This document shows, piece after piece, positions 7,564-51,556 of a stretch of DNA of 62,133 nt (position 1 is the stretch's first letter; every line of letters begins with the position of its first letter). Made by a program: the position numbers and the translations under genes. The notes beneath the pieces were generated by a model. It was not told the origin of the DNA, made no database searches, and was given only the letters and a program-made list of their open reading frames with translations. Location of the stretch: IMG/VR virus record IMGVR_UViG_3300046747_000361; one strand, given 5' to 3'. This DNA comes from a virus.

Positions 7564-7872
7564 CTACCTGCTAGTATAAACGACCCTTGCGCCTCGCGCC
7601 TCACATTGTTTTTGAAACTTGCGCGGTTCTGACAGTTGGTCGACTGCATGCACAAGTACGTAATCGATCTCATCGATCTCACGTAGCAGTGCACGAAGTT
7701 TCGGCCGACCTGGTTTCGTGTCTTCGAACCACTCGATCAGCCGCGTTTTCGAGATAGCCGCCCATCTTTCGATGGAGGTGCGCTGCGTCTCGTATACGAG
7801 GGCTGGGTCGGTGGGGATGTGAAACGTGTACGCAAGGGCGCTTGTTCTCAGTACCCGACGCTCTGTGACCAT
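7564..7872 (-). CDS. stand-alone resolvase-N-terminal-domain-like protein lacking catalytic Ser/Arg
   Basis: Aligns by eye to the serine-recombinase catalytic domain: AYTFHIPTD in place of Y-x-R-x-S, DYVLVHAVDQLSE in place of D-x-LVV-x-x-DRLGR, GARVVY. Start ATG 7872 or GTG 7878. Confidence 0.4.
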   Translation of the reverse strand: MVTERRVLRTSALAYTFHIPTDPALVYETQRTSIERWAAISKTRLIEWFEDTKPGRPKLRALLREIDEIDYVLVHAVDQLSEPRKFQKQCEARGARVVYTSR

Positions 7873-10230
7873 ATGCACGTTACTGTAAGCCTGTTTGAAA
7901 ATGTCAAGTCAACCCGCGCAGCACGCGAAACGATCGACTTCGGTTCGTTCCTTGCTGACTTCCGTGAGCCACCGACGAGCGAACTCGAGCCGACGCCCGA
8001 GAACGCTCGTGTGCTCAAACTAAGCGCGCCTGCTTTCGCGCCCGCTCTGTTCCGAGAGGACAGACGCAAAAAAAGCAACATTGAACTTGCACAAGTACTG
8101 GCATACGACATTGACGAGCAGATTGACCCGGCGCAACTGAGTGCACGACTGCAGAGACGAGGCATCTCGTACTGCGTGCACAGCACCACGAGCGGGAAAG
8201 GGGTGCACGTCTTGATACCGCTGGCCCGGCCTGTCGATGGCGAGACGTACTTGCGCTATTGGGACGAAGCGAAGGGGCTGTTTTACGGGATTGCCGTCGA
8301 CATGTCGAAGCGTGGGCCTGAGTCACTGTTCTTCGCGCCACGCATCTTCGAAGCTCGACGTGATTCGTATTACTTCGATTGTGTCACTGACGCGCCGTTC
8401 TTGGGATCGTCGGGCTTCAGGCCGTTTAAGCCTGAGCTCACGGGCGTGGACCGTTACGTGGAAGAAGTACGGGTGTGTTCTGATAAGCACACAACCGTAA
8501 ACAGGATCGGGTTTGTGCTTGGACTGCTCGGTCTCGAGCTCGAGGACGTGAAGACGCGATTGCTGGGAGCGTTGCGCGAGAATACGACGAGTACGCCGGT
8601 AATCGATTGGGTTAGTGCTGAGAACACAATCGTAAAAGCTTGGGGTGATGGAGCGGCGCAGAAGGAGGCGGACGACGCACGGCCCAAGTTCATCCCGGAC
8701 GCAGCAAAAAGCACTGGAAAACGCGTGCTAAAAGAGGCTGTGACTGGGATTGGGAAGGGAGAGGTACTTGGGCCGTGGGCGTATCGCGTGGGGCAATTCG
8801 TGCCGCACGTGCTCGAGTACGAGTTGGTTTTGGATGAACTTCGGGGAGCTTGGGAGCGCGCGAAGAACCACGATACTCGGTCGCTTGACGATGCTGTTAG
8901 GGAGATTGTGTCAGGTCTCGACGGGGGAAGACACAACCCGGTCGGAGTGCATGAGGAGTGGCAGAAGGACCTGAAGCTGACACCCGATGGCTTGGGATTT
9001 CATGCAGGCGAAAACAACGTGCACATAGTTTTGGAGAAGCATCCCGACCTTCTCAACCTGGCAGCGTTCGATGTGCGAGACGGGGCACCAGTCTATCTGA
9101 CTGCGCCTCCCTGGCATGCCGGTCAAAAGCTTGCGTATCCGAGGCGGTTGGAAGACTCGGACCGGCAGCGATTGGCACGATGGGTACGCGATCAGCTGGG
9201 CGTGGTGAACGTCAAGCCTGCGACTGCGCTCGAGGCGCTCATCGACCTGGCGAACGAGAACAAGCGCGACGCATTGCTTGATTACTTCAAGTCGGTGCCG
9301 ACTGCGGAAGGGGTCGACACGATCGAGAGTGTGCTCATTCGGACGATGGGAGCGGAGGACTCGGCTTATGTGAGAGCGGTAAGCAAAAAGTGGCTGATTG
9401 GGCTTGTGGCCCGACAGTTCGATCCTGGTTGCAAAATGGACACTGTTCTAATCCTGGTGGGCGATCAGGGGATGGCTAAGTCGTGGTTTTTTAAGGAGAT
9501 TTTTCCCGTCGAGCTGCAAAACCAGGCTTACTGTGACAGTGTAAATTTACTGCGACTTGACAAAGACCAGGTCACAAAACTGAACCGCTACGCCTGCGTT
9601 GAGCTTCCCGAGCTGGCGGGCATGTCCAAGGCCGATGTCGAGACAATCAAGATGAACGTGACCCAACAGCGCGCAGATGAGCGGCTTGCCTACGCGAGAC
9701 TTCATGCGCAGTTTCCGCGCAGAAGCGTGTTCGGCGGGACCACGAATCGGGATGATTTCTTGCGCGACCCTACAGGGGGGCGCCGGTTCTGGCCAATCAC
9801 CGTGACACGGGCGCTGGACAGGGAGGCGCTACGAGCTCTTAGGGGGCGTTTGTGGAGCGAGGCGGTAGGTGCATACCTCCGAGGCGAGGAGTGGCATCTG
9901 GGAGGCGAAGAGGAGGCACTGGCGAGGGAAATCAGGGAGGGCTTCGAAGAGGAGGACGTACTCACGGAGAAAGTTCGGGATGTCCTGGCTTGCTGGCCTG
10001 GCGATTCGAAGTTTGATGACGCGTCGTACGCGATGAAATCCTGGCAGCTCGAAGGTTCGCGCGTAGTTCGTGCACGTCTTGGGCAGTTGCTGCTCAAGCT
10101 TGGGTACGACTTGGCGGATAAACCGCGAGAGCGGAGGCTTGCTGACTGTCTGCGCAGACTCAAGTGGAACTGTCGGATTGAGCAACACGACGGTATTCGG
10201 TATCGGGTTTGGTACGAAAAGGGGAAGTAA
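7873..10230 (+). CDS. AEP primase-polymerase fused to VirE/D5-type P-loop helicase
   Basis: AYDIDEQID and GVHVLIPL (prim-pol motifs). LILVGDQGMAKSWFF (Walker A). C-terminal VirE-like region. Start taken as ATG 7873. Confidence 0.75.
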   Translation: MHVTVSLFENVKSTRAARETIDFGSFLADFREPPTSELEPTPENARVLKLSAPAFAPALFREDRRKKSNIELAQVLAYDIDEQIDPAQLSARLQRRGISYCVHSTTSGKGVHVLIPLARPVDGETYLRYWDEAKGLFYGIAVDMSKRGPESLFFAPRIFEARRDSYYFDCVTDAPFLGSSGFRPFKPELTGVDRYVEEVRVCSDKHTTVNRIGFVLGLLGLELEDVKTRLLGALRENTTSTPVIDWVSAENTIVKAWGDGAAQKEADDARPKFIPDAAKSTGKRVLKEAVTGIGKGEVLGPWAYRVGQFVPHVLEYELVLDELRGAWERAKNHDTRSLDDAVREIVSGLDGGRHNPVGVHEEWQKDLKLTPDGLGFHAGENNVHIVLEKHPDLLNLAAFDVRDGAPVYLTAPPWHAGQKLAYPRRLEDSDRQRLARWVRDQLGVVNVKPATALEALIDLANENKRDALLDYFKSVPTAEGVDTIESVLIRTMGAEDSAYVRAVSKKWLIGLVARQFDPGCKMDTVLILVGDQGMAKSWFFKEIFPVELQNQAYCDSVNLLRLDKDQVTKLNRYACVELPELAGMSKADVETIKMNVTQQRADERLAYARLHAQFPRRSVFGGTTNRDDFLRDPTGGRRFWPITVTRALDREALRALRGRLWSEAVGAYLRGEEWHLGGEEEALAREIREGFEEEDVLTEKVRDVLACWPGDSKFDDASYAMKSWQLEGSRVVRARLGQLLLKLGYDLADKPRERRLADCLRRLKWNCRIEQHDGIRYRVWYEKGK

Positions 10231-10494: not shown

Positions 10495-10541
10495 GCGCAA
10501 AACCCGTACATAGCTAGTTCAGCCATGTACGGGTTTTGCGC
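10495..10541. terminator. 17-bp perfect hairpin between convergent genes (bidirectional terminator candidate)
   Basis: GCGCAAAACCCGTACAT / ATGTACGGGTTTTGCGC flanked by an A-run and T-rich arms. Confidence 0.6.
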
Positions 10542-12134: not shown

Positions 12135-12337
12135 AATTGTCCCCCGATGTAAGCACAGTTGTCAGCTATTGCACGCACTTGCGCAGCATCTACCTCTGGC
12201 TCACTTACGCAAGCCTGACAGCCACGACACGCCCAAGTACCACTGCGTAGCTTGATGAGACCTCGATTCCCTTCGTGATCGTGGCCGCAACGCACATACA
12301 GCGCGTACCCGGCCGTTGATGTTAGAACCGCAGTCAT
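12131..12337 (-). CDS. hypothetical Cys/His-rich protein
   Basis: ORF track; CGHDH...CRGCQAC. Confidence 0.5.
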   Translation of the reverse strand: MTAVLTSTAGYALYVRCGHDHEGNRGLIKLRSGTWACRGCQACVSEPEVDAAQVRAIADNCAYIGGQL

Positions 12338-12519
12338 GGAAACCTCACATTCACGTGCCAGTGCTTACCGTTGTGCTCGCCCCAAAACTGCCATTGTCTA
12401 GCCCCTTTCACGTAATCACGAGTCAGGCTCAATAGCGTGTCGAGGTCACACTCATTGAACTCGAGTGTGATTGTGTTGTCTGTTTCGATGCTGCGTGTAA
12501 TCGCGTCGTGTGCGGTCAT
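12334..12519 (-). CDS. hypothetical protein
   Basis: ORF track. Confidence 0.5.
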   Translation of the reverse strand: MTAHDAITRSIETDNTITLEFNECDLDTLLSLTRDYVKGARQWQFWGEHNGKHWHVNVRFP

Positions 12520-12638
12520 CAGTATGCGCTCCTTCCTGGCTCGTAACAGACCTCGATCATGAGGCCCATGTCAAAACCGCAAGCGTGAAAGACGAGTTGC
12601 CCGAGATAGTTGATTGCAAATGGGTGAGCGTAATTCAT
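12519..12638 (-). CDS. 39-aa hypothetical protein
   Basis: AAGGAG upstream of ATG 12638. Stop overlaps the next start (ATGA). Below the track cut-off. Confidence 0.4.
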   Translation of the reverse strand: MNYAHPFAINYLGQLVFHACGFDMGLMIEVCYEPGRSAY

Positions 12639-12706
12639 GTAACTCCTTGGTCTGACACAGCCACACAGACGTTCGAGCGTCCTACTCGAGCGCTAGTGCA
12701 GGTGAG

Positions 12707-13030
12707 TCAGAAACTCGCGTCTCGATATTTACGACGTGCGCCGATCCGATAGTGTACGGAGTTGTGTGAATCAGCGCTGCCTGCTTCGTGCCAGCGCCCG
12801 CTTTTACGCAGGGTTACCTCCACCACATGCCCTTTTGGATCTGGCTTGTAGGTGTACTCAAGGGTCGTACCCATGGGCACAGGCCCACTGCCGACACGGA
12901 TCGCTTCATCTGCCTGCAACCAGAGCGTCTTACCGTTCTCACTCACCTTGATTACCGTGTACGGATTCGTGTCCGTAAACAGAACCTGCGTCGCGCCCAC
13001 GCCTACTTCGATGTGTTGTTTGTCAGTCAT
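12707..13030 (-). CDS. hypothetical protein
   Basis: ORF track. Confidence 0.55.
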   Translation of the reverse strand: MTDKQHIEVGVGATQVLFTDTNPYTVIKVSENGKTLWLQADEAIRVGSGPVPMGTTLEYTYKPDPKGHVVEVTLRKSGRWHEAGSADSHNSVHYRIGARRKYRDASF

Positions 13031-13115
13031 ATTCTGTCCTTTAAACTATCGTGCCACACATGAACCCGGTCTAGGACTCATTGGCTAAGATCGGGTTACA
13101 GTGTCGGATGACGGT

Positions 13116-13490
13116 TCACTTGCTCACGCGATACTCGGTCGGATCCTCACCTGCACGCCAAGCGGCGCGAAGGTCGTAAGGTGACGCAGTGTCGTTGCGC
13201 CCCGTTGCAGCAAACCATTCTTGAAATGTCAGACCTTCCGCATTGGTCCGTGAATTCGCGCGTGGGAAGTTGAACACGAACACGGCATCGCCATTCGGCA
13301 AGACCCCCTCAACCAGTCCCGCGCCCGACCATTCGTGCTTGGCGCAGAATGCTTGCGCCGCTTCAAGCTTGGGATCGTGTGCGCCGTGATCGTAACTGAC
13401 AGTCATACTCGGCACACCTTCCGCACTCACGCGCAGACGTGAACCCTTAGTCTCACTCGGTCCGAAATACTTGACTACAATCGCCTTCAT
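13116..13490 (-). CDS. hypothetical protein (first gene downstream of hammerhead A)
   Basis: ORF track; GGAGTGAGGA Shine-Dalgarno upstream. Confidence 0.6.
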   Translation of the reverse strand: MKAIVVKYFGPSETKGSRLRVSAEGVPSMTVSYDHGAHDPKLEAAQAFCAKHEWSGAGLVEGVLPNGDAVFVFNFPRANSRTNAEGLTFQEWFAATGRNDTASPYDLRAAWRAGEDPTEYRVSK

Positions 13491-13509
13491 TGTGTCCTCA
13501 CTCCAGTTA

Positions 13510-13558
13510 GAACCATTGCCGTCCTAGCATTCGGCCTGCGTGGCCTCATCAGTGGCTC
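13510..13558 (-). ncRNA. hammerhead ribozyme, type I topology, variant copy A (U15.1-A16.1)
   Basis: Minus-strand RNA GAGCCA|CUGAUGA|GGCC-ACGCA-GGCC|GAA|U-GC(U)-AGGAC-(G)GC-A|A|UGGUUC. Confidence 0.6.
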
Positions 13559-14054
13559 ACAGTGACAGTTTCGACATAACATCCATGTCAGTCTGAAACG
13601 CGGCAAGCAGACGCGGCAGTCGTGCCTCTAGCCATGCCTTCAAGTCTTCACGCGACATGCTCCACAGCATCTCGATCGGGAAGTCATCCTCAAGCGCGCC
13701 AAGCACAATGGTGCTGGCCAGTGCGCTAGGTGCGAGTGCTCGATCTTCGGGCCTGCCATATTTTGCACGCCCATGGTACGAGTCGTGCCAGAAAAGCCCG
13801 TTAGCGACGTAGTGCATCGGTCCTTCAGTCGAGGTGAGATGCCAGCGCACGAACGGTGCTAGCTCTGGGAAATAGCGCGCGACCTGCTCATGTTGACAGC
13901 CTCCTGACAACCAGCCGCGCTCACTTACGCCCGGATGTTTGTACTCGTCCAAAGTCACCGAAAAGTGTGGGGCTTGGTCACCGATCTTGTGCAGTCCATA
14001 CGTCGCGTGTACATAGGTACCGTCAGTGGTTCTACGAAACTTGGTTGTTTTCAT
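13557..14054 (-). CDS. hypothetical protein
   Basis: ORF track. Its UGA stop lies inside hammerhead helix I. Confidence 0.6.
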   Translation of the reverse strand: MKTTKFRRTTDGTYVHATYGLHKIGDQAPHFSVTLDEYKHPGVSERGWLSGGCQHEQVARYFPELAPFVRWHLTSTEGPMHYVANGLFWHDSYHGRAKYGRPEDRALAPSALASTIVLGALEDDFPIEMLWSMSREDLKAWLEARLPRLLAAFQTDMDVMSKLSL

Positions 14055-14132
14055 GACTCTTACTCCTATATCTGTGAGACCTAATCGTCTCGCCTAGGCT
14101 CTCGAACTATCCCGAGAGCCATGGCGAACCGA

Positions 14133-14441
14133 CTAGACCGCTTTAGCTGGCCGCATTTTTACGTAGACACCCGGACCGTGAAACCGCCCAAAGTACATGC
14201 GACCGTCGATGCCCTTGGCGCGGAATGGGGTCAGCGTCGACGACAGCCAGCCGCCTGTCTTGAATGGCGTGCCTGTGCTGGTGATGGTTGCGAGCGTTTC
14301 CCCCATCCAAGTTGTGATGCGCTTGCCGTCCGAGCTCACGTATGCCGTGTACGGACCGGCCTCACGCGTGAGGAAATTGGCAACTTCCTGCTTGCTCGTT
14401 TCCTGATTCTTTGCGTCGATTTGTGCTTGAATTTCTGACAT
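14133..14441 (-). CDS. hypothetical protein
   Basis: ORF track. Confidence 0.55.
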   Translation of the reverse strand: MSEIQAQIDAKNQETSKQEVANFLTREAGPYTAYVSSDGKRITTWMGETLATITSTGTPFKTGGWLSSTLTPFRAKGIDGRMYFGRFHGPGVYVKMRPAKAV

Positions 14442-14452
14442 GGCTCAACCCT

Positions 14453-14644
14453 CTAGAACTGGTGTGCGAATGCTTCGTCCCAAGTCTTGTAAGCTGGCGA
14501 GACTTCGAGCCGCGTCATTTTCCGAAACTCGGACTTCGGAAACAGTCGCGACAGTTTCGTGATGGGTTGTTTGGCCTGTGCCTCAGTGACAACCAAGCCG
14601 GCAGTGTACTGATTGTCACCAATAAATCGGATCTTGTGGTACAT
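14453..14644 (-). CDS. hypothetical protein (63 aa, downstream of hammerhead B)
   Basis: Start reassigned to ATG 14644 (GGAGTGAGC ATG). The longer track ORF would read through the ribozyme. Confidence 0.55.
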   Translation of the reverse strand: MYHKIRFIGDNQYTAGLVVTEAQAKQPITKLSRLFPKSEFRKMTRLEVSPAYKTWDEAFAHQF

Positions 14645-14660
14645 GCTCACTCCGTTGTTA

Positions 14661-14711
14661 GAACCGTATGCCAATCCTGGCATTTCGCTGTTCCCAGCTC
14701 ATCAGCGGTTC
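14661..14711 (-). ncRNA. hammerhead ribozyme, type I topology, copy B
   Basis: GAACCG|CUGAUGA|GCUG-GGAA-CAGC|GAA|A-UGCC-AGGAUU-GGCA-U|A|CGGUUC; the full conserved core is present. Confidence 0.85.
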
Positions 14712-15090
14712 AGTAATCGCCCGTCATGTAGTTCGCAGTGCTCTCACGCTGTGCCTTAGGCAATCGCCGCTCCCAACGTTCGTACCAATCGCCCCACGTG
14801 GTGAAGTGAAACTGTGCGCCGCAATGGTCATAGAGCAGAGTCAAGCCATACGTGTCACCTGTGTTCACGTATGACGCGTGTAGTCGGTGACTGCCGGCGC
14901 CACGATCCTCTGCAAGCCGCTCGATTCCGTGCCCGTGTAGGATCTCATCGGCAATCGCCAGCTTGACGCTGATTTTGGACGCGCCGATGAGTATGGCGTG
15001 CAGATCTTCGAAATCGCGCTCTGGATGCTCGGACAAGTGGTCAATAATGTGTCCAACTTCCCGGCGCAGTCGTGCCTTACTGATCTTCAT
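14710..15090 (-). CDS. hypothetical protein
   Basis: ORF track. Confidence 0.6.
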   Translation of the reverse strand: MKISKARLRREVGHIIDHLSEHPERDFEDLHAILIGASKISVKLAIADEILHGHGIERLAEDRGAGSHRLHASYVNTGDTYGLTLLYDHCGAQFHFTTWGDWYERWERRLPKAQRESTANYMTGDY

Positions 15091-15145
15091 ATTCCTACCC
15101 TTTCACGCCCCTAAGCCCGTTCCAACTCTTGAGTAAGAGCTAGAT
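15091..15145 (-). repeat. structured leader element, family P copy 1
   Basis: Minus strand: nested hairpin followed by GGGCUUAGGGGCGUGAAAGGGUAGGAAU-AUG. Homologous to 16918..16970. Confidence 0.5.
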
Positions 15146-15160
15146 ACGGGCGATTAGGTG

Positions 15161-15430
15161 TTAGGCGATGCGTCCGACGTGGTTTGCTGTGATGGTGATA
15201 CGGTCGAACACGGATGCCTCGGGATCCTCGTTGTATTGCTCGACACCGTCGTCACCCGCTAGCCACTTCGCACCCGCGCGCGACCAGACGCAAGTGTCCA
15301 CGTTGACTGGCTTGCCTTGCATCGCAAGTAGCGTTGCGTGTGTCACCGCTGCGTCGAAGTGCTTGAAAACTTTGGCGCCATTGTTCGTGTCGACGTGAAA
15401 CTCAACATCCTTATGCGATTTGCGCGACAT
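15161..15430 (-). CDS. hypothetical protein (89 aa, downstream of hammerhead C)
   Basis: Start reassigned to ATG 15430 (GGAGUGUGAAU AUG). Confidence 0.55.
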   Translation of the reverse strand: MSRKSHKDVEFHVDTNNGAKVFKHFDAAVTHATLLAMQGKPVNVDTCVWSRAGAKWLAGDDGVEQYNEDPEASVFDRITITANHVGRIA

Positions 15431-15446
15431 ATTCACACTCCAGTTA

Positions 15447-15499
15447 GAACCATATGCGCGCTCCTGCGCATTTCGACCTTCCGGTCTCATCAGTGGTTC
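15447..15499 (-). ncRNA. hammerhead ribozyme, type I topology, copy C
   Basis: GAACCA|CUGAUGA|GACC-GGAA-GGUC|GAA|A-UGCGC-AGGAGC-GCGCA-U|A|UGGUUC; the full conserved core is present. Confidence 0.85.
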
Positions 15500-15758
15500 A
15501 GCGCGGTCCGTGGCCTGGCTTGCACTTGCTCATGTCCGAGCAAGACACGACTTCGCAGCGCAACTCATGTCCACACCGATTCTCACGGTTAGGCAACATG
15601 CGCACCGAAAACGACTTGAATAGCTCGTTATACTCGAGACCGAAGTCGTAGCCCGTCGCATCGGCTTTCTGTTGCGCCTCTGCTTTTGCGGCTGGATAGC
15701 GCTCTTGAAAGGCGGCGGTTTCGTAGGCTGGAACTGTTTTTTTTACTTTGCGTGCCAT
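15498..15758 (-). CDS. hypothetical protein
   Basis: ORF track. UGA stop inside hammerhead helix I. Confidence 0.6.
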   Translation of the reverse strand: MARKVKKTVPAYETAAFQERYPAAKAEAQQKADATGYDFGLEYNELFKSFSVRMLPNRENRCGHELRCEVVSCSDMSKCKPGHGPR

Positions 15759-15835
15759 ACTTCTCTCTCGTTTTCCCTGTTAGTGTCACCCTAGCGCCTA
15801 GAGCTCTCCCTATGCGCTAGCGTCAGACTACAGAG
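15759..15835 (-). repeat. intergenic long-hairpin element, family S copy 1
   Basis: About 77-nt unit repeated three times. Imperfect hairpin of roughly 27 bp (15777..15833) plus conserved leader ...ACAGGGAAAACGAGAGAGAAGU-AUG. Confidence 0.7.
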
Positions 15836-15998
15836 CTTGATTTGCGATAATGTATCGAATTTCAACAGGCTTCAGTTTGCGGCATCGTTTCCACGCGCTG
15901 CGTTGTTTGGCGTGCTTGGCACAGTAGACAAACGAGCCATCCGTGTGCGTCGCCGATTCACAGCAATCGCAAGTGAATTCGCATTTTATGTTGTTCAT
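15828..15998 (-). CDS. 56-aa Cys-rich hypothetical protein
   Basis: My translation MNNIKCEFTCDCCESATHTDGSFVYCAKHAKQRSAWKRCRKLKPVEIRYIIANQAL. Flanked by family S elements. Confidence 0.5.
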   Translation of the reverse strand: MNNIKCEFTCDCCESATHTDGSFVYCAKHAKQRSAWKRCRKLKPVEIRYIIANQAL

Positions 15999-16070
15999 GT
16001 TTCTCACTTCCCTGTCAGTGCCACCCTAGCGCTTAGAGCTGTCCCTATGCGCTAGCGTCAGACTACAGAG
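15999..16070 (-). repeat. family S copy 2
   Basis: Hairpin 16012..16068. Substitutions relative to copy 1 are pairing-compatible (A-U to G.U). Confidence 0.7.
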
Positions 16071-16233
16071 TATCCCGTGGCTCGTATCCGCGGACTGGTG
16101 TGTGTACGCCGCACTTCTCTAGTTCGGCACGCGTGCCAACAAACCAGCCAGGCGAAAACACACTCCAGCCGTAGAACAACTCTTTATGCGCAGCGATTGC
16201 GCGTGCCTCTTCGACAGTCTTGGTTTTAAACAT
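16063..16233 (-). CDS. 56-aa hypothetical protein
   Basis: Start reassigned to ATG 16233 (MFKTKTVEEARAIAAHKEL...). Confidence 0.5.
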   Translation of the reverse strand: MFKTKTVEEARAIAAHKELFYGWSVFSPGWFVGTRAELEKCGVHTPVRGYEPRDTL

Positions 16234-16309
16234 ACTTGTCTCTCGTTTCCCTGTCAGTGTCACTCTAGCGCCTAGAGCTGTCTCTAGTCGCTAGCGTCAG
16301 ACTACAGAG
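16234..16309 (-). repeat. family S copy 3
   Basis: Hairpin 16251..16307; a G.U pair in copy 1 becomes A-U here. Confidence 0.7.
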
Positions 16310-16489
16310 TCACTCACCACTTGGTAGCTTGTCGAGCCATGCTGAGTACCGCGACCACAGTCCGGGGCGTTTCGCGATTAGTGCGCGTAGTTCTTTTGCA
16401 GTCAGTCCAGTTTCAACCAAGTGCAAGAATGTCTCGTTACACTCTGCGGACTGGCGAAATGCTTTCTCGTAATACCAGCGTTGCGTCAT
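16310..16489 (-). CDS. 59-aa hypothetical protein
   Basis: My translation MTQRWYYEKAFRQSAECNETFLHLVETGLTAKELRALIAKRPGLWSRYSAWLDKLPSGE. Below the track cut-off. Confidence 0.5.
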   Translation of the reverse strand: MTQRWYYEKAFRQSAECNETFLHLVETGLTAKELRALIAKRPGLWSRYSAWLDKLPSGE

Positions 16490-16528
16490 GTTCTCTCTAT
16501 TCTGTTCAGAACTCGCGCAGCGACCGGA

Positions 16529-49337: not shown

Positions 49338-49409
49338 TAGCGGGTGTTGGATTCGAACCAACGGCCTCTTGGTTATGAGCCAAGCGAGATGCCACTTCTC
49401 CAACCCGCA
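49338..49409 (-). tRNA. tRNA-Met/Ile2-type (anticodon CAT) with U1-U72 mismatch
   Basis: Hand fold: UGCGGGU-UG-GAGA-AGUGGCA-UCUC-G-CUUGG-CUCAUAA-CCAAG-AGGCC-GUUGG-UUCGAAU-CCAAC-ACCCGCU-A. No encoded CCA. Confidence 0.8.
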
Positions 49410-49421
49410 ATAGTGAGAGTG

Positions 49422-49487
49422 TTACCAGCGAGTAGTCGCTCGAGACTTGTTCATGTAAAAAATGTAGTCCCGAACTGGATCTGGTAA
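49422..49487 (-). ncRNA. short stem-enclosed RNA (possible YrlB-like short Y RNA)
   Basis: Helix UUACCAG (49487..49481) / CUGGUAA (49428..49422) resembles the GUUGAC/GUCAAC helix of the two larger modules. It is followed by the same ...CUCUCACU motif. Confidence 0.25.
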
Positions 49488-49489
49488 CC

Positions 49490-49637
49490 GTGAGAGTGAG
49501 CTGTTGACGAGTAATCGCTGATACAACTACGGCGTTCTACCACTGAACTATACCCCAAAACATCGAGGTAGTTGGATTCGAACCAACGACTTCCGGCTCC
49601 AAATGCGATGTAGTACCAACTGAAATTCAACAGCGAA
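49490..49637 (-). ncRNA. Y RNA-like RNA 2 with circularly permuted tRNA-like core (49534..49587)
   Basis: Order: T arm (GUUGG-UUCGAAU-CCAAC), closed acceptor (UACCUCG-AUGUUU-UGGGGUA, 5 WC + 2 GU), U8A9, D arm (GUUC-AGUGGUA-GAAC). Enclosed by the 8-bp helix GCUGUUGA/UCAACAGC. Confidence 0.45.
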
Positions 49638-49644
49638 AAGGGTG

Positions 49645-49851
49645 CCACCGACGAGTGAGCGTTGACAGTATTTTTTGGAGCTCTACCAACTGAGCTACGT
49701 CGCAACTTGCGAAACAACGGCTGGGCTCGAACCAGCGACCGCCCCATTAGCAGTGGATGTAATGCCAACTAGAAATTCGGTAGCGTAAAGACTGTGACTG
49801 ACTGCTATGCCTGACAGAAAACGGGGGTGTTTGTTGTCAACAGCCAGTCAC
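49645..49851 (-). ncRNA. Y RNA-like RNA 1 with circularly permuted tRNA-like core (49680..49736)
   Basis: Order: T arm (GCUGG-UUCGAGC-CCAGC), closed acceptor (CGUUGUU-UCGCAAGU-UGCGACG), U8A9, D arm (GCUC-AGUUGGUA-GAGC). Enclosed by the helix GGCUGUUGACA/UGUCAACGCUC with a C-C mismatch. Confidence 0.45.
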
Positions 49852-49858
49852 CCGATAC

Positions 49859-51556
49859 TTATAGCGCCAGAGCCTCTATCTTTGCAACCCAATTCTTTAC
49901 GTTGCCTGACAAAAACTCCGACACGACTTCGAACACAGAATCACTAAAGCCGCCCACGTTGAGACGGTCAGGTGCACTCGTCGCTTGTGCCGAACTCATC
50001 GCTGCAATGTCGATGCACACGAGCTTGGCGTGTGGCGCGCGCTTCTTGAGCTTGGCCCATTCGGCCATCATCCCCGTCGTGTTGCTGTAGTAGCTGCCGG
50101 CCCACGATTCGTTGTCGCTCACGAAGATCACGACGTCAGGGTTGAGCCCGCGCTTGTTGAGCTCGATGAGGGGCAACTCGCACTGAGTGCCGCCCCCGCC
50201 CAGCTTCGCCAGCTGCTCTGCGAAGTTCATCACCGTCATGTTCTTTTGCGCCTCGGCGATGAAGCAACGGGTGTCGAAGGGCAACACGATCGACTTCTTC
50301 GACCTCTTCATGAACGCAGCTGTGAACAACGCCGCTGCGTCTACATATCGCACCTTCGTCGTTGCGCCCTTGCGAACGCCCGTAATCGGGCTGTTCATCG
50401 ACCCCGACACGTCGAGACAGATCGCGACGTTCGCGTCGAGGAAGGGCACGTTCTCAAGCGCGTGCTCCATCGCGTCATGAAGTGCCTGGACGATGAGCTC
50501 GGGCATCGTCTCCCCCGAGGGCGGCGTGAACTGCCAGGGCTGGGTCTTGGTCTCCTGCACGGCCAAGTAGGCCGACAAGATCTGGTAGGGGAAGGTCTTC
50601 GCCCGCTGTACGAGCTCCTTGTCGCGAAGCCGGTCGGCGATGAGCTCGACCATCGCGGGCTTCTCGAGCACGCCATGACGACGAAACGTGTTCAAATTCT
50701 TGACAGTCATCGTCCAGGACGCGCGAGCCGCGACCTCCGCCCATTCGTCATTCGACAGTCCGAGCGCATCTAGGAGCCTGAAATCAACGTCGGGCACAGC
50801 CCCGGTACGCGTCCGCTTGAACTCTTCGTACTGCTTGATGGTGTCGGGGAGAAGGTCTGCATTGTACCTCGTGACCGTGACAGACTCGCCATCGAGCGTG
50901 TACGGTAGGTCGAACTGCCGCTGACGCGCAATGATGGTGTTGAGGAGGGCCTTGTCTCGGGGCTTGCAGACCCGAACCAGATCGCCCGTGAGGTAGCCAT
51001 AGAGGGCACGACGAGCCGGGTCGTTCGGCTCGGGTCGCAGGCGCCGGATGACATACGCGAGGCTTGGATCTTCGCCGATACTGTCACGCAGGAGGGCCAT
51101 CGGGTGCCTGCGATTGAGCCAATCCTCGCAGAGGCGCCGGGGCTGGCTCCCGAAGTTCTTGCGACCCGTCACGCCAGAGCGGATGATCTGCACGAAGTTT
51201 CGAAGCATCTTGCCGTTGTCGATCACATGAGGGAACGCGCGACCGAACCACTGCGGGGTGTGTCGAGCAGCAAGCACGGCCAGCAGGTACGCCGGCATGT
51301 CCTTGAGCTTGCCCTGTTGCCGCGCATACGCAGCACACTTGGCGAGGAACTCATCGCTGACGCCCTCGGTGAGCTTCTTGACGTCGTCAAGTTGCTCAGT
51401 GGCTGCTGTGTAGTAGGTACTGCCGAAAAACCCAGTGGCTGCATACTGGGCGAGGGCCTCTTTGTTGGAGAGCGCGTAAGCGGCGCCCCCTGCCTTGTTT
51501 TTCACGACCTGTGGCGATAGAAGGGACTTGTCCACGATGCCCCCATCGTGGGACAC
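49859..51556 (-). CDS. rsr: Ro60-related protein (TROVE domain + vWA/MIDAS domain)
   Basis: N-terminal VKNKAGGAAYALSNKEALAQYAATGFFGSTYY (TROVE signature). C-terminal VAICLDVSGSMNSP (MIDAS DxSxS). 565 aa. Confidence 0.85.
   Translation of the reverse strand: MSHDGGIVDKSLLSPQVVKNKAGGAAYALSNKEALAQYAATGFFGSTYYTAATEQLDDVKKLTEGVSDEFLAKCAAYARQQGKLKDMPAYLLAVLAARHTPQWFGRAFPHVIDNGKMLRNFVQIIRSGVTGRKNFGSQPRRLCEDWLNRRHPMALLRDSIGEDPSLAYVIRRLRPEPNDPARRALYGYLTGDLVRVCKPRDKALLNTIIARQRQFDLPYTLDGESVTVTRYNADLLPDTIKQYEEFKRTRTGAVPDVDFRLLDALGLSNDEWAEVAARASWTMTVKNLNTFRRHGVLEKPAMVELIADRLRDKELVQRAKTFPYQILSAYLAVQETKTQPWQFTPPSGETMPELIVQALHDAMEHALENVPFLDANVAICLDVSGSMNSPITGVRKGATTKVRYVDAAALFTAAFMKRSKKSIVLPFDTRCFIAEAQKNMTVMNFAEQLAKLGGGGTQCELPLIELNKRGLNPDVVIFVSDNESWAGSYYSNTTGMMAEWAKLKKRAPHAKLVCIDIAAMSSAQATSAPDRLNVGGFSDSVFEVVSEFLSGNVKNWVAKIEALAL

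Follow-up and report, generated by a model that had tools for sequence, protein, structure and literature searches.

Phage T7 carries RNase III processing sites between its early genes, and RiboJ is a ribozyme that serves as a synthetic insulator. Hammerhead ribozymes in prophages often lie close together and flank single genes of varying identity, and it has been proposed that long phage transcripts are cut by them into gene-length mRNAs (Perreault et al. 2011, PMC3088659). Three tandem prophage arrangements cleaved themselves in vitro and one did so in vivo, and triple arrangements were found in Agrobacterium tumefaciens, Azorhizobium caulinodans and Clostridium scindens (PMC3088659). With cyPhyRNA-seq, other bacterial hammerheads that lie close to phage-like genes have been confirmed to cleave in vivo (PMC8782182), and a review from 2019 regarded the purpose of phage and bacterial hammerheads as undefined (PMC6765202).

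The DNA analysed here, referred to as the window, is the 62,133-nucleotide sequence of IMG/VR virus record IMGVR_UViG_3300046747_000361. It is phage or prophage DNA encoding a VapE-like primase, helicases, an SU10-like portal, a serine recombinase, a tyrosine integrase and a Ro60/TROVE protein. The window is only remotely related to deposited phages: its portal shares 22% identity with the portal of a Silvanigrella phage, and a blastn search with positions 12500-16500 gave no match to deposited phages. Three hammerheads, designated C, B and A, start at 15499, 14711 and 13558, all on the minus strand and in the gaps of a long array of small minus-strand ORFs without family matches, as in the clusters known from prophages. 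This arrangement was reported, with experimental tests, by Perreault et al. (2011), and copy B is therefore a new example and not a new kind of ribozyme. What is distinctive of its family is the fusion of stop codon, ribozyme and ribosome binding site (RBS), the open stem I with a conserved tail, the invisibility to Rfam and the mobility between gene contexts.

Copy B is encoded at 14711..14661 on the minus strand as a 51-base type I hammerhead with 13 of 13 core nucleotides and three helices. The descriptor, the minimum free energy (MFE) fold, the family model and covariation all point to it, and it is almost certainly a genuine hammerhead motif. From the 5' end the RNA reads GAACCG (5' strand of helix I, 14711-14706), CUGAUGA (core positions C3 to A9, 14705-14699), GCUG and CAGC (the 4 bp of helix II, 14698-14695 with 14690-14687) around loop II, GGAA (14694-14691), then GAA (G12 to A14, 14686-14684), AUGCC and GGCAU (the 5 bp of helix III, 14683-14679 with 14672-14668) around loop III, AGGAUU (14678-14673), and finally A17 (14667) and CGGUUC (14666-14661), which closes the 6 bp of helix I. 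Helix I is open and holds both ends of the RNA while helices II and III are closed by loops, which is the type I topology. The core has the class sequence C3 U4 G5 A6 N7 G8 A9 and G12 A13 A14, with A15.1 (A at 14683) paired to U16.1 (U at 14668), an A at H17, where only G is disallowed, and standard pairs next to the core at G10.1-C11.1 and C1.1-G2.1. The scissile bond is predicted to lie between A17 (14667) and C1.1 (14666). The sequence quoted in the initial annotation agrees exactly with the minus strand, and the cleavage site that it placed at 14667/14666 agrees with the coordinates of these two residues.

Copy B had also been described as a canonical, probably functional hammerhead that covaries with copy C (15447..15499, minus strand, found by the descriptor and scoring 70.9 bits with the family model) and is not a plain repeat of it. 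This description holds, since the sequence features of the class are all present and catalysis can be predicted from them. The 13 core nucleotides are the same in both copies, as had been stated, and helix I differs by a single compensated pair, A-U to G-C at 2.1/1.1. To call helix II entirely different is slightly overstated because the G10.1-C11.1 pair is common to B and C; the other three of the four pairs differ and all are compensated. Helix III differs and stays paired as claimed, but the difference is modest: the first four pairs are shared and only the distal end has changed, with C-G in copy B and G-C plus an extra C-G in copy C.

A loose type I descriptor, composed of the core, three perfectly paired helices and an H17 other than G, matches exactly three sites in the 62 kb, namely C, B and A, all on the minus strand and inside 2 kb, against 0.09 matches expected per window in dinucleotide-preserving shuffles. 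When the descriptor is made as strict as copies B and C, two sites are observed against none in 1,003 shuffles. Both the MFE and the centroid structure of the 51-mer are the hammerhead three-way junction (-19 kcal/mol, z = -3.98). The MFE structure is the same as the proposed hammerhead model, none of 200 shuffles is as stable, and the fold is kept in 141 nt of native context.

Rfam gives a different picture. At gathering thresholds it reports two tRNAs only and no hammerhead in the whole window, and no hammerhead appears there at E <= 10. On a 2.2-kb slice the best model for copy B is RF02275 (HH9) with 16.4 bits against a gathering threshold of 52 (E = 1.4), and a part of copy C resembles type III with 18.7 bits against 48.5; copy B stays below the gathering threshold of every model in clan CL00010 (RF00163, RF00008, RF02275, RF02276, RF02277). 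A score below threshold is a property of the seed alignments of the models and not a defining feature of the ribozyme class. Copy B has the class-defining features and Rfam is silent, and it therefore lies outside the sequence space of the curated models. Since a whole hammerhead sub-family is invisible at the curated thresholds, routine phage annotation will miss such elements.

Copy B lies on the sense strand of both flanking genes. The upstream ORF (126 aa, 14710..15090, minus strand) comes from the ORF list and has no Pfam or PHROG match; scans of the eight neighbouring small ORFs with the same two databases assigned no function. Its UGA stop codon (14712-14710) contributes GA as the first two bases of helix I. 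The downstream ORF (63 aa, 14453..14644, minus strand), called as a 63-aa gene in the JGI contigs L022, L023 and L026, has a GGAG Shine-Dalgarno sequence at 14653-14650 and its AUG at 14644-14642. Between helix I and this RBS lies a UAAC tail (14657..14660, minus strand), which directly follows the 6-bp helix and is invariant in all members of the family. All copies in the window start at the GA of the upstream UGA and are followed by UAAC, GGAG and AUG, so that copy C has the same stop-codon overlap and arrangement as copy B. Most relatives likewise start at GA of UGA, and UAAC-N(2-13)-SD-AUG follows. Sequence, fold preference, covariation, the fixed placement from stop codon to ribozyme to RBS and conservation across phages are the directly supported properties of copy B.

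Gene calling is affected by this overlap. An alternative call of 76 aa (14683-14453, minus strand) starts at an AUG within the ribozyme (GAAAUGCC) and lacks a Shine-Dalgarno sequence, and the gene after copy C has a similar long call of 109 aa instead of 89 aa. Start codons are mis-annotated in such calls because the hammerheads go unrecognised. In the related contig L033 (1815-1824) the upstream ORF does not end at a UGA overlapping helix I but at a UGA within the catalytic core (CUGACGA), and the coding sequence therefore runs into the ribozyme core.

The array of small genes is closed by a strong intrinsic terminator with a 20-bp stem and a U-tract (10495..10541, minus strand), and a scan of the array found no internal promoter-like sites above chance. 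This is the appearance that would be expected of a single polycistronic transcript.

Relatives of the ribozyme were reached through the 165-aa ORF that lies upstream of copy A, whose homologues (61-77% identity) led to related phage contigs of about 64 kb with two (L033) and four (L034) hammerhead copies. A scan of JGI metagenome contigs added L042, with a canonical A15.1-U16.1 copy (7813-7862) before a homologue of the gene following copy A, and L052, with a B-type copy (GAGCCG..GCUG GGAA CAGC..AUGCC AGGACU GGCAU A CGGUUC) that shares helix II GCUG/CAGC and C1.1-G2.1 with copy B. Ten distinct family members from five phage lineages (the window, L033, L034, L042/L053 and L052) are available for comparison. 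Exact-protein look-ups rendered L020-L032, which represent the same phage strain in many metagenomes and give no covariation information because their ribozymes are identical.

The covariation proposed for copies B and C persists after the homologous phages have been added. In a hand-curated structural alignment all 16 of 16 helix positions are standard-paired in all ten members and eight of the 16 are changed on both sides (I.1; II.2, II.3, II.4; III.1, III.2, III.3, III.5), in a family that is small and in which some changes are shared by descent. In a second alignment, which was fitted to a covariance model, 97.1% of the cells are paired compared with 19-33% when partners are slid by 1-3 columns; six pairs are doubly changed and the covariation score is reached by none of 500 shuffles. 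The four unpaired cells are a mis-registration of two members with a 5-nt loop. The core of the ten diverged copies retains the catalytic positions, with eleven invariant nucleotides and variation at the free N7 only. The covariance model of the family gives 72.6 bits for copy B, 70.9 for C and 58.9 for A. With filters off it detects no fourth degenerate copy in the window, where the best other score is 14.2 bits, and it found no additional copies in the loci searched.

The ribozyme moves independently of its neighbours. The B-type copy in L052 is flanked by ORFs of 153 and 59 aa, neither of which resembles the neighbours of copy B, and it is therefore the RNA that is conserved and not the adjacent genes. 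No type I hammerhead was found with the relatives of the 126-aa upstream ORF in IMG/VR (L003-L009, 41-49% identity), and the ribozyme is therefore independent of this gene. L033 lacks both copy B and the genes that flank it. In more distant relatives no hammerhead was found by descriptor (L037, L039, L040, L057-L063) or by model search (L037, L039, L040, L057, L058, L060-L062).

Such mobility is also what would be seen if the element were mainly a module boundary at the DNA level, with the GARCCR...YGGTTCTAAC arms and the core acting as homology patches for cassette swapping and the ribozyme being secondary or vestigial. The exchange of flanking genes between the window and L052 and the joint absence in L033 fit this explanation, as does the fact that helix I and the tail are nearly invariant among the copies while helices II and III diverge. 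It also agrees with a solo joint, TGA-CTGC-GGTTCTAAC, at about 12329. Base pairing is, however, unnecessary for a recombination patch, and the substitutions in helices II and III are all compensated, with the core kept, in ten diverged copies, which argues for selection on the RNA. We consider a mainly DNA-level role unlikely, and the roles of DNA patch and ribozyme are not exclusive. The solo joint itself (about 12337-12321, minus strand) directly follows the stop codon of a 61-aa ORF (12334-12519) and consists of the hammerhead 3' arm and UAAC tail without a ribozyme; it may have been left behind by a deletion or mark a past recombination event.

Pattern searches outside the related contigs gave unrelated hits. 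In IMG/VR the pattern CTGATGAG..CGAA..GGTTCTAAC has two matches and neither belongs to the family: L001 is a chance match and L002 contains unrelated hammerheads. The pattern GAACCNCTGATGAG..CGAA..GGTTC has ten matches in 185,579 species-representative genomes, of which none folds as a hammerhead; by our own estimate about 14 would be expected by chance. L002 (IMGVR_UViG_3300029288_003002) is an unrelated contig with a type I hammerhead of its own at 8401-8453 (AACCCU CUGACGA GUCC..) and an apparent type III hammerhead at about 9085-9125, about 650 nt downstream of type I.

Minimal hammerheads are slow at cellular Mg2+, and fast natural hammerheads rely on a contact between stem I and loop II. 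The loop-loop tertiary motif of natural hammerheads combines UNmYN with RNnA, and loop 2 is most often a GNRA (Dufour et al. 2009, PMC2632901). In copy B, loop II GGAA fits RNnA and the UAAC-N that follows stem I fits UNmYN, although loop 1 is not closed. Copy B reads UAAC-A right after helix I, and the sequence beyond UAAC varies among the members. Helix I is in most cases preceded by the stop-codon U, a residue that is unable to extend it. We infer that the UAAC tail supplies the tertiary partner, as the loop 1 strand, for the 3' A of loop II; this candidate contact is hypothetical because the partner is a dangling tail and not a closed loop.

The closest parallel in geometry is the sTRSV(+) type (Dufour et al. 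2009, PMC2632901). Its 6-bp stem I and 4-bp stem II with a 4-nt loop (PMC1636495, Table 1) are those of copy B, and the two have in common a GNRA tetraloop on stem II, a U directly after position 1.6 and an A as the last residue of loop 2, which are the two residues of the reverse-Hoogsteen tertiary pair in natural hammerheads (PMC2632901). They differ in that sTRSV is a type III ribozyme with stem I closed by a 7-nt loop, whereas stem I of copy B is open and the motif can come from its 3' strand (UAAC-N) alone. At the cleavage site sTRSV has the triplet GUC and copy B has AUA; AUA occurs naturally but is kinetically among the slower, suboptimal triplets (PMC1636495).

Three members of the family have U15.1-A16.1 instead of the canonical pair: copy A (13510..13558, minus strand, GAA-U, with a 5-nt loop II), L033 1815-1864 and L033 3257-3305. 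The variant of copy A is conserved in L033, while L042 holds the canonical A15.1-U16.1 in the same gene slot. Compared with L042, copy A and L033 3257-3305 appear to have lost A15.1 and, in compensation, U16.1. In L033 1815-1864, which is orthologous to copy C, the A-U pair has truly been swapped to U-A. A natural U15.1-A16.1 hammerhead is known to self-cleave, less efficiently and weakly, and mutants at 15.1/16.1 lose at least 10-fold activity (PMC3088659). The variants are kept in two phages that share about 77% protein identity, which suggests that low activity is tolerated or tuned and does not reflect decay. As U15.1-A16.1 lowers activity in the cases tested, the fastest possible cleavage may not be what is selected in this family.

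The persistence of these variants might also be taken to mean that cleavage is too slow to matter and that the RNA is structured but non-catalytic in vivo, where it would stabilise a 3' end, cause pausing or attenuation, or bind a factor of the host or the phage (for instance through the AGGA loop III). The suboptimal AUA triplet and the lack of a closed loop 1 are compatible with this, and loops of the AGGA/UAGG type are also present in the non-ribozyme hairpins that occupy the same slots. Against such a role, a structural junction would not need eleven invariant core nucleotides in ten copies, the UAAC tail and GNRA loop fit the fast, tertiary-stabilised format, and comparable prophage clusters cleave efficiently (PMC3088659). 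A purely structural function therefore appears quite improbable, and copy B can with considerable confidence be predicted to cleave in vitro.

The most plausible reading is that copy B is an active type I hammerhead that processes a polycistronic phage transcript from the minus strand, which we regard as probable; the transcript is most likely an early one. Copy B fits exactly between a stop codon and the next RBS, so it most likely cuts a long phage mRNA into single-gene pieces. In this explanation we infer the tertiary contact, an effect on expression and cleavage itself, both in vitro and in vivo. As the RNA polymerase leaves the 126-aa ORF, the local hairpins of helices II and III would form first, and the 6-bp helix I would close once CGGUUC has been synthesised. 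The 3' A of the GGAA loop might then dock on the U of the UAAC tail and bring stems I and II into the parallel geometry that would be needed at cellular Mg2+, whereupon the 2'-OH of A17 would attack the phosphate before C1.1. The upstream mRNA would keep its stop codon and end after a structured trailer of 43 nt, a compact two-hairpin structure with a 2',3'-cyclic phosphate. The downstream mRNA would begin with a 5'-OH and an unstructured leader of 22 nt before the AUG (CGGUUCUAACAACGGAGUGAGC) containing its own Shine-Dalgarno sequence. Neighbouring cistrons would in this way be physically uncoupled, and their stability and translation would be free to differ. Helix I would be melted by a ribosome that terminates at the UGA overlapping it, and cleavage must therefore compete with translation.

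Ro60/Y-RNA-type modules adjoin RtcB in some bacteria, and this phage carries such an RNA-quality-control module, a Ro60/TROVE protein with YrlA-like RNAs. It is conceivable that cleavage is only the first step and that the reverse reaction of the ribozyme or an RtcB-type ligase re-joins the fragments, giving RNAs that are circular or lack a cistron, because the arms of C and A are each fully complementary to the partner strand of the other copy (GAACCA or GAGCCA with UGGUUC) and the ends would be a 2',3'-cyclic phosphate and a 5'-OH. Helix I is nearly identical among the copies, which fits re-joining, but copy B has C1.1-G2.1 and cannot stand in for C or A at this position, and no RtcB was found among the window ORFs scanned. 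Perreault et al. had put forward the same idea, but their search of comparable clusters for products that were spliced or circular was negative (PMC3088659). Re-joining is thus highly improbable, and cleavage that separates the cistrons is the reading kept here.

When compared with the prophage clusters of Perreault et al., the locus is similar in having several hammerheads within about 2 kb that follow the orientation of the genes, flank single small phage genes and include occasional core variants such as U15.1-A16.1. The family differs in its compact type I format of 49-53 nt, in which the 6-bp stem I is open and the UAAC tail single-stranded, in place of a pseudoknot or a closed loop 1. 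It also differs in being joined at fixed spacing to the upstream stop codon and the downstream RBS, in falling below every Rfam hammerhead threshold and in having sister phages that hold covarying hairpins in the same slots. The RNase III sites of T7 and RiboJ are alike in principle, being intercistronic elements that give a hairpin-terminated upstream mRNA and a short, defined downstream leader. The T7 sites require a host nuclease and leave a 3'-OH and a 5'-phosphate, whereas a hammerhead requires none and leaves a 2',3'-cyclic phosphate and a 5'-OH.

The hammerheads are not the only structured RNAs in the array. According to sequences and folds, nearly every 64-85-nt gap between the small genes of the operon holds a structured RNA; the set spans 12639..16309 on the minus strand, and the three hammerheads fill equivalent gaps. 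It includes three copies of a long hairpin, Z (16309-16234, 16062-15999 and 15827-15759), the long intergenic hairpins W (15160-15091) and V (14132-14055), and two hairpins of a type common in relatives, Y (13115-13031 and 12706-12639), all on the minus strand. Motif Z reads UCUGACGCUAGCGC..GCGCUAGRGUGACACUGACAGGGAA. A further motif, X, in the relative L037 (7919-9185) consists of UGCGAGCGUUGAGCGUGAG-loop-CUCGCGCUCAUAGCUGAC.. followed by a second small hairpin. In motif Y the base, (G)ACAC/GUGU(GG), is conserved; the hairpin also has an internal loop, and its inner stem covaries strongly, with compensatory changes in 9 of 9 pairs (10 of 14 overall). Motif Y recurs in L033 (2685-2760, 3713-3798), L034 (3469-3547, 4504-4585, 5620-5687), L037 (9444-11096), L039 (1-1385) and the gaps of L057, L058 and L061. 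Rfam with permissive filters assigned no known ribozyme class in L040 and L038, which carry motifs Y and X. The conserved GTGTGGCAC..TAGTT flank of motif Y was considered as a sigma-54 or an extended -10 promoter, and the sigma-54 reading was rejected because the flank lacks the GG-N10-GC spacing.

Hammerheads and hairpins can precede the same gene. The 124-aa gene after hammerhead A has a homologue in L042 (86% identical) with a canonical hammerhead before it and a homologue in L037 (73% identical) with a Y hairpin before it, and the two are thus positional alternatives. In more distant relatives of about 42 kb every gap contains a Y-like hairpin, and hammerheads are absent. Most simply, hammerheads and hairpins would both be marks of intercistronic processing, where the hairpins are perhaps substrates of a host RNase specific for double strands, as in the early mRNA of T7. 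Motif Y is possibly such a processing site or something newer.

A bolder extension, which we judge doubtful, is that the phages form a group not described before, in which the hammerhead is one of several interchangeable cassettes of stop codon, RNA element and RBS. The ribozyme would in that case replace nuclease-dependent processing sites without relying on the host, at least one of the hairpins (Y, X or Z) might be a new self-cleaving or factor-guided cleavage motif, and U15.1-A16.1 would be a deliberately slowed form giving a rate set gene by gene. The locus is in any case an unusually clean natural experiment, with a ribozyme joined to stop codon and RBS three times in one operon. Between relatives it offers a natural swap series at an identical slot, from canonical hammerhead through the weakened U15.1-A16.1 form to a plain covarying hairpin. 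RNA ends and expression across these swaps would directly test hammerheads as signals for intercistronic processing and insulation.

Apical loops of the AGGA/UAGG type (UAGGAUU, AGGAC, UAGGCU and others) recur in loop III of the hammerheads and in motifs Y and X. Their likeness to a Shine-Dalgarno sequence suggests a shared trans-acting partner, which may be the 30S subunit or a protein.

The phage-borne Ro60/Y-RNA module lies at 49338-51556 (minus strand). It comprises a 565-aa ORF with TROVE and Ro60-vWA domains (49859-51556), tandem YrlA-like RNAs that score below threshold (49783-49642, 30 bits; 49633-49498, 45.8 bits, E = 5e-7) and a tRNA after them (49409-49338), all on the minus strand. 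In two of the relatives a small protein with an Acb2/Tad1-hairpin domain is encoded a few kb from the hammerhead or hairpin operon (L037 17165-17383 and L053 14773-14994).
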